NCBI RefSeq assembly: GCF_963853765.1
Contig: NC_088861.1
Coordinates: 21,548,281-21,612,280, forward strand
From: Magallana gigas
Taxonomy: Eukaryota
DNA: 64,000 nucleotides
Direction of reading: 5' to 3'
This document shows positions 39,855 to 49,147 of this stretch, in pieces. The translations under genes were made by a program, and so were the position numbers. The notes beneath the pieces were generated by a model. It saw nothing but the letters and a program-made list of their open reading frames with translations. It ran no database searches and was not told the DNA's origin. Within the stretch, counting starts at the first letter, position 1. Each line of letters starts with the position of its first letter.

Positions 39855-40941
39855 TGTTACAGTCTTTGTTTGAAATAACTGACAACAAAGATATCTGTAT
39901 GGTTCGTTTTATTTGTATCCGGACACAGTGACTTTAAAATTTGCAATGTATATTTAAGCCCTGAAATATCATAAAACAATAATATAATTTATATCAAAAT
40001 ATAACATTAGTACAATTTATATGTATTTCCATCAAGATAATATTTTTACATTATCTTACTATAATTGTACTTAAACATTTAGCGGGAGGTAACTCTTATA
40101 ATATACATGAATTACATTTCTCCAAAATAAGTCATAAAATATATATTAATCAGATAAAAAAATATTTAAAAACACTTTCTCACCATTCTATGGGAACAGG
40201 CTCATACACCGATTGCGTGGTGAGATTAAATTGACATTGACTGATTCTGTAATATGAACAGAATAATTCTAAAAATATTTATTACTGAAGTATAATCTAA
40301 TTGATCTTATAAATGACCAATTTAATCAAATATCTGATCATCATAAAATTCTTATATACAATTGATTTGAGAATCAATTAATACTATAATAAATAAACCA
40401 AATATTGATCTTTACACTGTATTCCATATAAAAAAATATCTTTTCATTCCAATTCATTCATACTCATTAGTTTGTGATCATGGACGGAATTAATGTTTTC
40501 TGCAATTTATAGGATAATCAATTTATTAGTAGTAAGTGTTATAGGATATTAGTATACTTAGTATAACTTACCAGAAAAAGAGCAAGGTCTGGTCCAAAAT
40601 AAATTTACTTCTCAATATAAATATAGTCTGTTCTAGTCAATGTCCAGACAAAGATTGTCAAACTTGGCGGTAAAACACATAAAGCAAAATATACAAACCA
40701 ACCAAATTCAACCTGACACAAACAACCAATAAAAACCAAGATCACAAATATCCACTGACCAACTCATGATCAAGTACTGCCCTAAGGGTATATATTGTAC
40801 ATGTGTATGAATTAAAAGAAAGGGTGGATCTAACTTTTTTATATGTGTAATGTTTAGATGTATCAATTACAATAACTTTATTTATTTATATTACAATAAC
40901 TTTATTTATTTATTCAAATCAACAATTTTCATACTCTTACA
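39855..40941 (-). repeat. 3' LTR of the gypsy element
   Basis: Direct repeat of 48061..49147. Ends with ...CA and is followed on the element strand by the purine tract GGGGGGAGAG. Confidence 0.9.
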
Positions 40942-40951
40942 CTCTCCCCCC
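40942..40951 (-). other. Polypurine tract GGGGGGAGAG immediately upstream of the 3' LTR
   Basis: Plus strand ctctcccccc abuts the LTR start on the element strand. Confidence 0.5.
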
Positions 40952-41049
40952 GGTCGCAGAATGACTTCCACGTCATTCAACTCGGAAGCTGCATATATCT
41001 GAAGAGTAACATGGCATAAAATACATATATTTACAATTTAAAAAAAATA

Positions 41050-44000
41050 TCATGTATTAGAACATGTAGAAGCAGACACAATGTTAAGTAAAGCCATCTG
41101 GCATCTACTTCGGTCAATGTCTCGTAATGAACCATCATTCATCAACCCTTTCACAAATACTGCTCTTTGTAGCCAATCTGGTTGTGTCTGGTTCATCATG
41201 ACAAACTCCTTTGTCCATGCTGGCATTTTTCTTTGTCTGGTAGATCTTCTTGGGGCTGGAGTAGGTATATCGACATTTTCTCTGGAAGGCATTTCATCTT
41301 CAGAATCATCAGATTCATTGATGTCATCATCAGTGCTATCAACATCATGGATGATATTCTCATCATCATCATCATTGTTGACATCATCCTCTGGTTCATC
41401 ATCATTGATGATCTCTTCAGGTTGGTTCTCAGGCTCTCTATCCTGATGGGAAGCGTCCTCCCCTGAACCAGCTGCTGAAGCTTCCTCAGTTGTAGATTGA
41501 TCGTCATCATCTAAACTGGGAGTAACTTGGGAATTTTCATTTCTAAATGCAGAGTTATCTACATAAGAAAATTCACTGTCACTATCTGAATCATTCTCAG
41601 TAATAATGCTTACTGGTTCTGCCTTCCTTCTCTTTCTAGGAGTAACTGGAGGAGGAGAAGTACTTCTTGGAAGCTTTGTTCCGATAGGTAGAAGCACATT
41701 TCTATGAAGAACTCTAGTTCTTCCTTCTCCATCCTCACGTCTGACTTTATAAACCGGAATGTCATCATTTGCTTTCGCTAAAATGACATAAATATCATCT
41801 TCCCATTTATCAGCAATTTTATGTTTGCCGTCGTATGCCACTTTCTTGACGAGAACTCTGTCACCTTCCTCTAAAGTGATGGCTCTTGCTTTTATGTCAT
41901 AACGGCATTTCTGGTTCTGCTGAGAAGATTTTATTGCTGTTTGTGCCTGTCTGTAAGCATCTTGCAGTCTTTGCTTCAGCTCGGATATGTACTTAGTTGT
42001 ACACTTATCCTCAGAATGGCTGCTGGAAAATCCAAAGACCACATCTACTGGCAAAACTGGTTCTCTTCCAAACATTAGATAGAATGGTGTGAACCCAGTT
42101 GTATCGTGTCTAGTAGAGTTATATGCGTGAACCAGTGTGTTTATATGCTTTTTCCAATTAGCTTTCTGAGCGTTATCTAATGTTCCTAGCATTGATAATA
42201 ATGTCCTATTGAATCGCTCTGTAATACCATTACCCATAGGGTGATATGGCGTTGTCCTGGATTTAGAGATGCCAAATATGGAGCATAATTCCTTAATGAT
42301 GTTGCTGCAGAAATTTGTCCCTTGGTCCGAATGAAGTTTAGCTGGAATCCCGTAATGAACAATAAAATGGTTATAAATAGCTTCTGCTGTTGTTTTGGCT
42401 GTTTGGTTCTTGGTTGGCACGGCAATTGAATATCGTGTGAAATGATCGGTTATGACTAAAATGTTTTGTATTCCTCCTTTCGATGGTTCAAGAGTGAGAT
42501 AGTCCATGCATACAAGCTCTAGTGGCTCTGATGTTCTGATGTTGACCAATTCTGCTCTCTCATTGCTGGTCTTGCTCTTAATGCATCTTTCACAGGAGTT
42601 GATCCAATCAGAAACATCACGCTGCATCTTTGGCCAGTAAAATCTTTGCCTAATTAAGGAGAGAGTCTTATCTCGCCCTAAATGACCCATCTTGTTATGT
42701 AAGTATTCCAAAACAGTGGGATACACTGATGCAGGAATTACATATTGCTGATGAGTATTGTCATCTACTTTGACTTCTCTGAGTAAAATACCATCTTTTA
42801 CTCTAAGTTTGGCAAAGTTCCTGTGGTAAACAAAATCATCTTCAGTAATAAGTGTCTCTCGTTTGGGTCTAATACATTCCTGTACCTTGTTTTTCCAAAA
42901 ACTAACAGTAGGATCTGTGTTTTGGATTTCCATGATATCCAAATACTTTCCAATATCTGTACAAGGTTGTACTTGGTTGCAAATAGCATCATCTATAGCA
43001 AGAGATTCTGCATATGGCTGTCCAGTTGCAAGCTGGCAAATTGCCTTAATGGTGTCACTAGATACTGTTTCCACTTCCTTTAATCTGGATAGTCTATCTG
43101 CATCTATATTTGTTTTCCCTGGTTTGTAGATGATCTTGAAATTAAATGAAGCTAATGCTGAAATCCATCGATGTCCAGTTGCATCCAATTTTGCTGAAGT
43201 TAAAACATAGGTAAGGGGATTATTGTCGGTGTATACTACAAATTCTTTGCCTTGAAGGTAATCTGAAAATTTTTCTGTGACTGCCCATTTAAGTGCCAAA
43301 AATTCCAGTTTGTGAGTAGGATAATTCTTTTCAGATTTACTCAATCCTCGACTAGCATATGCTATAACTCTATCCATTCCATCCTGCTCCTGATATAGCA
43401 CTGCGCCTAGTCCTGTCTGACATGCATCGGTATGGAGCTTAAAAGGTTTGTCGAAGTCTGGGTAACCTAGGACGGGTGGTGATGTAAGTTTCTGCTTAAT
43501 GAGGTCAAATGATGTTTGCTGTTCCTTCTCCCACCTCCACTTTGGATCCACTTTCTTACTTCTTGATTTTTTTCCTGTGGCCATGATATCTAATAAAGGT
43601 CTAGCAATTTTAGAGAAATCATGAATAAATTTTCTATAGTATCCTGCAAACCCTAAAAATTGTCTTACCTCTTCAGGATTCTGTGGAATAGGCCAGTTTT
43701 TAACTTTAGCAAGTTTATCAGGGTCTGGCTCAACCCCATGCTCGGACACAATGTGTCCTACATATTTAACCTTCTTCATAAGTAAGGAACACTTTTTGGG
43801 AGAAAGTTTAAGCCCATAATCTCTAATTCTCTGGAAAACTTGCTGAAGGCGATTAAGATGTTCCCTGAAAGATTTAGAAAATATGATTAAATCATCTAAA
43901 TATACAAAACAAATTTTTAGATGAAGGTCGCCTAAACATTGCTCTTGAAGACGCTGATAGGTTGCAGGGGCGTTTGCAAGGCCAAAACTCATGCGGTTAA

Positions 44001-48039: not shown

Positions 48040-48057
48040 GTCCCAACGTGGGCGCCA
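48040..48057 (-). other. Primer-binding site TGGCGCCCACGTTGGGAC
   Basis: On the minus strand the 5' LTR is followed by TT then TGGCGCCCACGTTGGGAC. This is complementary to a tRNA 3' end ...GUCCCAACGUGGGCGCCA and shares TGGCGCCC with tRNA-Lys-type binding sites. Confidence 0.6.
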
Positions 48058-48060
48058 AAA

Positions 48061-49147
48061 TGTTACAGTCTTTGTTTGAAATAACTGACAACAAAGATAT
48101 CTGTATGGTTCGTTTTATTTGTATCCGGACACAGTGACTTTAAAATTTGCAATGTATATTTAAGCCCTGAAATATCATAAAACAATAATATAATTTATAT
48201 CAAAATATAACATTAGTACAATTTATATGTATTTCCATCAAGATAATATTTTTACATTATCTTACTATAATTGTACTTAAACATTTAGCGGGAGGTAACT
48301 CTTATAATATACATGAATTACATTTCTCCAAAATAAGTCATAAAATATATATTAATCAGATAAAAAAATATTTAAAAACACTTTCTCACCATTCTATGGG
48401 AACAGGCTCATACACCGATTGCGTGGTGAGATTAAATTGACATTGACTGATTCTGTAATATGAACAGAATAATTCTAAAAATATTTATTACTGAAGTATA
48501 ATCTAATTGATCTTATAAATGACCAATTTAATCAAATATCTGATCATCATAAAATTCTTATATACAATTGATTTGAGAATCAATTAATACTATAATAAAT
48601 AAACCAAATATTGATCTTTACACTGTATTCCATATAAAAAAATATCTTTTCATTCCAATTCATTCATACTCATTAGTTTGTGATCATGGACGGAATTAAT
48701 GTTTTCTGCAATTTATAGGATAATCAATTTATTAGTAGTAAGTGTTATAGGATATTAGTATACTTAGTATAACTTACCAGAAAAAGAGCAAGGTCTGGTC
48801 CAAAATAAATTTACTTCTCAATATAAATATAGTCTGTTCTAGTCAATGTCCAGACAAAGATTGTCAAACTTGGCGGTAAAACACATAAAGCAAAATATAC
48901 AAACCAACCAAATTCAACCTGACACAAACAACCAATAAAAACCAAGATCACAAATATCCACTGACCAACTCATGATCAAGTACTGCCCTAAGGGTATATA
49001 TTGTACATGTGTATGAATTAAAAGAAAGGGTGGATCTAACTTTTTTATATGTGTAATGTTTAGATGTATCAATTACAATAACTTTATTTATTTATATTAC
49101 AATAACTTTATTTATTTATTCAAATCAACAATTTTCATACTCTTACA
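48061..49147 (-). repeat. 5' LTR of the gypsy element (in element orientation)
   Basis: Direct repeat of 39855..40941. Every segment compared by eye is identical. Confidence 0.9.

Follow-up and report, generated by a model that had tools for sequence, protein, structure and literature searches.

We analysed a stretch of 64,000 nucleotides (nt) from the oyster Magallana gigas (NCBI RefSeq assembly GCF_963853765.1, contig NC_088861.1, positions 21,548,281 to 21,612,280 of the forward strand), referred to below as the window. Positions 39855-49147 of the window are occupied by a 9,293-bp long terminal repeat (LTR) retrotransposon on the minus strand. The element is very probably a full-length, autonomous member of the Ty3/gypsy group (Metaviridae) that inserted recently in the oyster. 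Its anatomy, its intact motifs and the identity of its LTRs are direct observations, and its features are as follows.

39851-39854, no strand: target-site duplication ATTC, left in the window and downstream in the orientation of the element
39855-40941, minus strand: 3' LTR, 1087 bp, TG..CA, same as the 5' LTR
40942-40951, minus strand: polypurine tract (PPT) GGGGGGAGAG, abutting the 3' LTR
41050-45456, minus strand: pol reading frame, 1468 amino acids (aa) including the overlap with gag
45318-46490, minus strand: gag, 390 aa from its ATG
45387-45393, minus strand: slippery heptamer T_TTA_AAC, site GGCUUUAAAC, in the gag frame, putative -1 frameshift site
46491-48039, minus strand: untranslated leader, about 1.55 kb, from the primer-binding site to the gag ATG
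48040-48057, minus strand: primer-binding site (PBS) TGGCGCCCACGTTGGGAC, an 18-mer beginning with TGG, 3 nt (TTT) past the 5' LTR
48061-49147, minus strand: 5' LTR, 1087 bp
49148-49151, no strand: target-site duplication ATTC, right in the window

Anatomy and boundaries of the element

The large open reading frames (ORFs) lie on the minus strand, and the repeat at 48061-49147 is therefore the 5' LTR and that at 39855-40941 the 3' LTR. Direct comparison of the two repeats gave 1087 identical positions out of 1087, with 0 mismatches. The identity ends exactly at each boundary, and the LTR termini are TG...CA. The tetranucleotide ATTC stands directly outside both ends of the element as a 4-bp target-site duplication, and the reconstructed empty site reads …GGTTGATTC|CAACTGACC…, with a single ATTC. 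The PPT followed by TGTAAG is retained in all eight of the related contigs (described below) that extend this far. The first 9 nt of the PBS are presumably the same as those of tRNA-Lys PBSs; an ARAGORN run over the window found no tRNA gene, and the cognate tRNA was not found there. Rfam, applied to the whole window, returned no family at gathering score. This LTR pair was all that a repeat finder reported, and with the element as BLAST query no second copy, fragment or solo LTR was detected in the window.

The leader contains no ORF of 100 aa or more, and it holds a 30-bp tandem duplication (46999-47061). A sequence close to the splice donor consensus, ctgGTGAGT, has its GT at 47809-47808, and some 1.17 kb downstream of it lies a possible acceptor, tttcttgcAG, with its AG at 46641-46640. 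One contig of the same family (L002) crosses this putative leader intron (46640-47809) unspliced.

Coding capacity: Gag, Pol and the putative frameshift site

The pol ORF runs for 1468 aa without a stop. Pfam profiles place on it, in order, a protease (PR; 53-154), the reverse transcriptase (RT) domain RVT_1 (409-570), RNase H (642-771), an H2C2 zinc finger (907-963) and the rve integrase core (977-1116), such that integrase (IN) comes last in Pol, not upstream of RT. The motifs expected of an active enzyme set are intact, namely LLDTGA, YLDD (519-522) and the HHCC finger, together with an integrase triad (D985, D1044 and E1080) that has the exact D,D-35-E spacing. The C-terminal region of integrase extends over aa 1129-1259, from a GPY/F motif at aa 1129 to the end of an SH3-like domain, LHRNVLLPIG, at 1250-1259. 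In a library of solved structures that was without copia and BEL/Pao references, the best homologue of Pol was Ty3 Gag-Pol (7Q5B; E=4e-101 over query aa 346-1232), with Ty3 RT next (4OL8; E=2e-75). Retroviral RTs and integrases scored far below Ty3; weaker matches included a caulimovirus-type 'enzymatic polyprotein' (8e-53) and a gammaretroviral RT (about 4e-32).

Gag comprises 390 aa from the first ATG (46490), and independent gene calls on related contigs give 388-390 aa. Pfam recognises in it a PNMA capsid (CA) domain and a CCHC knuckle. The overall layout is a PNMA-type capsid at approximately aa 75-240, a coiled helix at 259-283 and a CX2CX4HX4C zinc knuckle at 343-356. Among sequences in the Protein Data Bank the capsid is best matched by PNMA2 (8RB3, E=2e-4). 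An AlphaFold2 model of Gag, built with 50 homologues, has block-mean predicted local distance difference test (pLDDT) values of 87-97 over capsid residues 71-240, and the best fold match of the modelled capsid is again PNMA2 8RB3 (E=7e-8, template-modelling score 0.69), ahead of Arc, dArc and the CA of murine leukaemia virus (MLV).

Between the pol stop and the 3' LTR there are only 108 nt. Apart from gag and pol, the sole ORFs of at least 100 aa are two short ones nested within pol, antisense to it or in a different frame, and no non-overlapping ORF of this length that might encode env was found in the element.

Relative to gag, pol is read in the -1 frame, which opens just past a TAG at 45456 and overlaps gag by 136 nt. 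A scan of this overlap found U_UUA_AAC to be the sole heptamer of the form X_XXY_YYZ in the gag frame, and the heptamer is kept, together with its context, in 9/9 related contigs. A -1 slip at this site yields an uninterrupted Gag-Pol of 1813 aa. We infer, on what we consider good grounds, that Gag-Pol would be made by -1 ribosomal frameshifting at U_UUA_AAC.

These findings bear on most of what an earlier note on this DNA had claimed. It had described the element as a gypsy retrotransposon, and the profile and structure searches indeed put Pol with Ty3 and the Gag capsid with PNMA. The ATTC duplication, PBS and PPT that it reported are all present in canonical positions, and the LTRs that it judged identical have now been aligned in full, their 0/1087 mismatches lying far below the divergence of 1-2% above which it would have considered the copy old. 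Full translation over 5.4 kb likewise revealed no hidden frameshift or stop in gag or pol. Its account of the ORFs was right for pol (1468 aa) and for the intactness of gag, but not for the length of the latter: the 429 aa that it gave are counted from a TTG, which is accepted as a start only under a bacterial-code ORF rule, and gag is really 390 aa from its ATG.

A conserved module at the C-terminus of Pol

Pol continues beyond the integrase C-terminal domain, with two further features.

41053-41679, minus strand: Pol C-terminal tail, 209 aa (aa 1260-1468), composed of a basic/proline stretch, an acidic stretch and a terminal module
41053-41274, minus strand: conserved terminal module (aa 1395-1468), three predicted helices

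The acidic stretch is of low complexity (approximately aa 1287-1394, 38% D+E) and includes the DDDDENIIHD... segment. That such a D/E-rich stretch exists had been pointed out in the earlier note, which regarded it as part of an unusual extension of roughly 300 aa past the integrase core. An extra tail does exist, but about 140 aa of this extension are the canonical integrase C-terminal domain. The true extra tail is 209 aa, because the alignment with Ty3 reaches aa 1232 and the SH3-like domain ends at 1259. Nor is the extension unusual. Among the 120 best relatives of Pol, from a search space of 5.8 billion proteins, 113 carry the anchor motif and share the architecture of basic/proline stretch, acidic stretch and terminal module. 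Median values for these 113 tails are 211 aa in length and 22% D+E; the relatives, from Pinctada, Mytilus and others, are 41-63% identical (mostly 47-63%).

An alignment of the terminal module from 60 diverse sequences shows R9, R13 and P18 to be invariant and S11 and W20 nearly so, with the consensus RRSxRxRxxPxWMxSGxYV...W..RA..L..L...G....A.L. AlphaFold2 (pLDDT 88) predicts an extended, strand-less N-terminal segment packed on three helices. Among 1.84 billion representative proteins, a profile of the module matched 604 clusters (at 50% identity) with E<=1e-3 and 200 with E<=1e-10. Nearly all of the 150 matches listed end within a few residues of the protein C-terminus. Four retrotransposon matches that we read were C-terminal fragments of Pol with the same layout. 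One further candidate homologue, P0177, a bacterial-type NACHT protein with 13 HEAT-like repeats, was rejected, as we judged the similarity to be a resemblance between helical repeats.

The earlier note had placed the acidic stretch where many gypsy elements have a chromodomain and saw none here. Consistent with this, no chromodomain or other Pfam family was found in Pol aa 1130-1468 even at E<=10, and the terminal module is predicted to be all-helical. Targeting determinants are borne at the integrase C-terminus by Ty1, Ty5, MLV and the chromoviruses. By analogy, our best guess is that a flexible acidic linker in the tail may present a small helical module for protein interaction, by which the integrase complex would be tethered or imported; we propose this because of the position of the module at the integrase C-terminus and its conservation only. 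More tentatively, and with some doubt, we raise the possibility that the conserved module, of about 65 aa and always behind an acidic disordered linker of about 100-150 aa, is an undescribed integrase-appended domain. Such a domain might define a large clade of Ty3/gypsy elements with PNMA-type capsids in molluscs and other aquatic animals, and might serve in target-site tethering or nuclear import, much as a chromodomain does.

A family of closely related copies

The Pol protein belongs to a cluster of 80 members headed by P0001, a Pol that is 99.5% identical to that of the window and differs from it by 7 amino-acid and 21 synonymous codon changes (28 nucleotide differences). The 40 of the 80 members that were read include at least 11 distinct full-length, stop-free Pol variants with 99.2-99.7% identity. 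Cluster members of 1414 aa were considered as deletion variants and rejected as such, since they start at a downstream Met. At the DNA level, nine contigs from nine Sequence Read Archive (SRA) runs represent the same family, with intact ORFs and 98.2-99.5% identity to the window copy.

Divergence among the copies differs strongly by region. It is 0.6-0.7% in pol and 0.9-1.2% in gag, and reaches 2.5-4.4% in the leader and 3.3-5.7% in the LTR segments. Comparison of the window copy with the nine contigs by the Nei-Gojobori method gave a synonymous divergence (dS) of about 0.02 in pol and a ratio of nonsynonymous to synonymous divergence (dN/dS) of 0.07-0.19; since the window copy enters into each of them, these estimates are not independent. 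The pattern shows that the sampled variants come from replicating lineages under purifying selection, and not from decaying dead copies. One contig (L003, 5894-6630, from SRR25336279) carries an LTR without a segment equal to positions 367-689 of the window LTR and about 94% identical elsewhere. Within the family, then, LTRs can differ by large indels even though the coding regions are about 99% identical.

Another contig, L001 (SRR13374887), is 4.7 kb long; it starts late in gag, includes pol and ends 25 nt inside the LTR. It has 29 base differences and one 1-nt indel relative to the window, and therefore comes from another copy; among the contigs recovered, none reaches from LTR to LTR. The runs SRR13374879, SRR13374888 and SRR13374889 are diploid and triploid female Pacific oyster gonad transcriptomes (PMC12722230). 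SRR13374887 falls numerically among them and is probably one of the same RNA-seq series; L001 would then be a gonad transcript, and the family is probably transcribed in the gonad. In UniRef, the M. gigas entry A0A8W8LZ60_MAGGI matches one third of gag with 98% identity. This match and the origin of L001 are two independent leads to the Pacific oyster as host. More distant relatives, about 50% identical, come from Pinctada, Mytilus, Saccostrea and Haliotis. Taken together, the sequences suggest a family that is young, multi-copy, selectively maintained and probably expressed in the germline. It is quite likely that the family is already a Repbase Gypsy-N_CGi entry.

Age of the insertion and alternative explanations

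Zero differences between the LTRs place a 95% upper bound of about 3/1087, or 0.28%, on their divergence. At an assumed neutral rate of 2-5e-9 per site per year, the insertion would be younger than roughly 0.3-0.7 million years, and quite possibly far younger. The 0/1087 differences between its own LTRs are meaningful because the non-coding sequence of the family is free to change. The claim in the earlier note that the insertion is very recent is therefore borne out, its LTRs being identical while the LTR segments of other copies differ by 3.3-5.7%. Its further suggestion, that the element is possibly still active, also finds support at the level of the family. The motifs are intact, at least 11 near-identical Pol variants exist, dN/dS is 0.07-0.19 and one source of sequence is probably gonad RNA-seq, all of which is consistent with copies that may still be moving today.

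Several points weigh against the reading of a recently inserted, competent element and its expressed family. Consensus polishing can exaggerate the identity of LTRs in assemblies. None of the nine contigs is identical to the window copy, so that the probable transcription is that of the family, and the RNA-seq status of SRR13374887 was deduced solely from neighbouring accession numbers. As to the frameshift, the RNA 3' of the slippery heptamer is no more stably folded than its shuffled counterparts (minimum free energy -18.1 kcal/mol, z=+1.06, in a pseudoknot-free model), and the downstream hairpin starts about 16 nt away, compared with the 5-9 nt usual for frameshift stimulators. Finally, fold and Pfam searches gave the terminal module of Pol no homologue of known function, and its role is conjectural.

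It is possible, if doubtful, that the element is intact and young and has since been silenced or has died, for example through PIWI-interacting RNAs or methylation, the signals of selection then reflecting past activity. Such a history would fit the lack of a contig that matches the window copy exactly, and a dN/dS below 1 among copies records what has happened and not current mobility. However, it fits less well with a copy in which the LTRs show 0/1087 differences and every ORF and motif is intact, or with near-identical intact Pol variants from nine independent runs, one of them probably gonad RNA-seq. Doubts about the LTR identity itself carry much less weight. We consider it highly unlikely that the identity is an artefact of assembly or polishing, in which reads from many copies were collapsed on both LTRs: a multi-copy family at about 99% identity would lend itself to such an error, but the boundaries, duplication, PBS and PPT are all exact, and the window LTR differs by 4-6% from the LTR segments of other contigs, so that it is not a family consensus. 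More improbable still is an older insertion whose LTRs were kept identical by gene conversion. Conversion between LTRs is known in LTR elements, but here it must have spanned all 1087 bp exactly, in an element that retains 5.4 kb of ORFs without a stop or frameshift and a perfect duplication, and in a family whose non-coding parts diverge freely (2.5-5.7%).

We give almost no credence to the idea that the locus represents an endogenous retrovirus (ERV) or errantivirus-like element with env, or else a domesticated, PNMA-like host gene. The capsid is PNMA-like, and a related oyster protein is named 'paraneoplastic antigen Ma3 homolog' in RefSeq. However, the 108 nt downstream of pol leave no room for env, and a domesticated gene is ruled out by the presence of a full pol between complete LTRs, together with the PBS, PPT and duplication. 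A recently inserted, autonomous Ty3/gypsy element therefore remains the reading that we prefer.

Proposed replication cycle and comparison with known elements

On this preferred reading, and by homology to Ty3 and retroviruses, transcription would start in the 5' LTR. A host tRNA would presumably prime minus-strand DNA at the PBS, and the PPT would prime the plus strand. Gag, with its PNMA-type capsid and CCHC nucleocapsid, would be translated from the ATG at 46490, and a minority of ribosomes slipping by -1 at U_UUA_AAC would produce the 1813-aa Gag-Pol, which would supply protease, RT/RNase H and integrase. Integrase would then insert the cDNA by a 4-bp staggered cut, leaving a duplication such as ATTC.

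The defining features of Ty3/gypsy elements (Metaviridae) that we looked for are all present. With Ty3 of Saccharomyces cerevisiae the element shares the order of gag followed by PR-RT-RNaseH-IN, a short target duplication, and the presence of LTRs, PBS and PPT. Ty3 measures about 5.4 kb and its LTRs 340 bp; its frameshift is +1, and its tethering is to RNA polymerase III promoters. In contrast, the oyster element is 9.3 kb long, with 1087-bp LTRs, a 1.55-kb leader and a -1 frame with U_UUA_AAC, and its 209-aa acidic tail with the helical module lies outside the alignment with Ty3.

A PNMA-type capsid, and the layout in which the capsid precedes a CCHC knuckle, are shared with PNMA-clade metaviruses (zebrafish Gypsy-12 and Gypsy-30) and with mammalian PNMA genes, here compared by description. 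The mammalian genes derive from PNMA-clade metaviruses, which are reported from reptiles, amphibians and fish, and the vertebrate relatives have an N-terminal RNA-binding domain of about 100 aa with mixed alpha/beta structure before the capsid (Henriques et al., PMC10516033). The host here, unlike that of the vertebrate relatives, is a mollusc, and only about 70 residues precede the capsid, modelled at low confidence as two helices with no strands. Judging by this model, the N-terminal RNA-binding domain of PNMA-clade Gags appears to be missing.

As in the chromoviruses (Tf1, MAGGY and Sushi-ichi), an extra conserved module is found at the extreme C-terminus of integrase. Unlike them, however, the oyster Pol has no detectable chromodomain; a chromodomain combines a three-stranded sheet with one helix, and the module here is predicted to be all-helical. 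Membership of the chromoviruses is thus excluded by the lack of a chromodomain, that of the Gmr1-like Gypsy elements by the C-terminal integrase, and that of the errantiviruses or env-bearing ERVs by the lack of an env ORF. The likeness of the tail to the MLV IN tail that contacts BET proteins, or to the Ty1 IN-AC40 and Ty5 IN-Sir4 pairs, is one of functional analogy only, each having a short conserved end after a flexible region; no similarity of sequence or fold was found between the terminal module and the integrase tethering peptides of MLV, Ty1 and Ty5.

Gypsy is the most abundant LTR superfamily in molluscs, in which 21 Gypsy clades, 16 of them new, have been described (Thomas-Bulle et al. 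2018, PMC6238403). These clades (the C-clade/Mag lineage, AB-clade, Cigr-1, CsRN1 and MolGy1-16) and Steamer of Mya arenaria come from the same host group as the element. CsRN1 has a CHCC zinc knuckle, unlike the CCHC knuckle of the oyster Gag. Steamer is about 5 kb long, with 177-bp LTRs and a single ORF, and the oyster element is nearly twice as large.

For genome annotation, the element is a clean reference for a young Ty3/gypsy family of the oyster, with exact boundaries, coding capacity and a candidate frameshift site, and it is a possible probe for insertion polymorphism and germline transposon activity in a highly polymorphic aquaculture species. It further indicates that bivalves harbour abundant and apparently live metaviruses with PNMA-type capsids, and that this lineage shares a conserved, unannotated C-terminal Pol module, plausibly for integration targeting. 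The element is ordinary of its kind and leaves the understanding of LTR retrotransposons unchanged.

Other features of the window

The window has a G+C content of 34% and contains short satellite arrays and repeats resembling miniature inverted-repeat transposable elements (MITEs), all of which fits the Pacific oyster genome. Close to the element, about 650 bp from its 3' LTR, an ORF of 172 aa at 38687-39205 (plus strand) resembles the C-terminal catalytic half of a tyrosine recombinase (…HSLRSGGATAAA…GRWRS…). Its match to Pfam Phage_integrase (E=0.0018) is under the gathering score and the frames upstream are broken by stops; from its sequence, it is probably the remnant of a Crypton- or DIRS/Ngaro-like element. 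Two adjacent ORFs of 203 and 173 aa lie at 4369-5570 (plus strand), the second ending in an (ER)n run. Neither has a credible Pfam match, and the pair may represent host-gene exons or what is left of a transposable element.

Several repeats are inverted or interspersed. A MITE-like repeat occurs four times (1566-1680, 7942-8065, 11265-11375 and 51207-51305), with an internal palindrome in which …GTTCAACCAGACGCTCGGCTGTCTCCGTAAATCTCCGAC… faces its complement. A repeat of 428 nt is present at 16614-17041 and, in inverted orientation and with 95% identity, at 51293-51720. Inverted repeats of 509 nt (24056-24564 and 26485-26993), which are 95% complementary, lie 1.9 kb apart and have 42-bp tandem units inside, as expected of a foldback or terminal-inverted-repeat DNA transposon. 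The dense array at 11515-13078, which is a satellite-like or foldback structure, has a periodicity of 65/66 bp (131 bp); its units pair as inverted repeats with arms of up to 213 nt that are about 90% complementary.

Two further arrays are tandem. At 28165-29974, approximately 10-11 copies of a 168-bp unit are 78-93% identical in their core. The Cg170 family consists of Helitron-borne 166-bp satellite arrays in Crassostrea gigas (PMC7348941), and the 168-bp array resembles it in size and short-array context, a likeness drawn by description. At 59612-60139, four tandem copies of a 140-146-bp unit share 63-93% identity, and a related single copy is found at 57987-58073.

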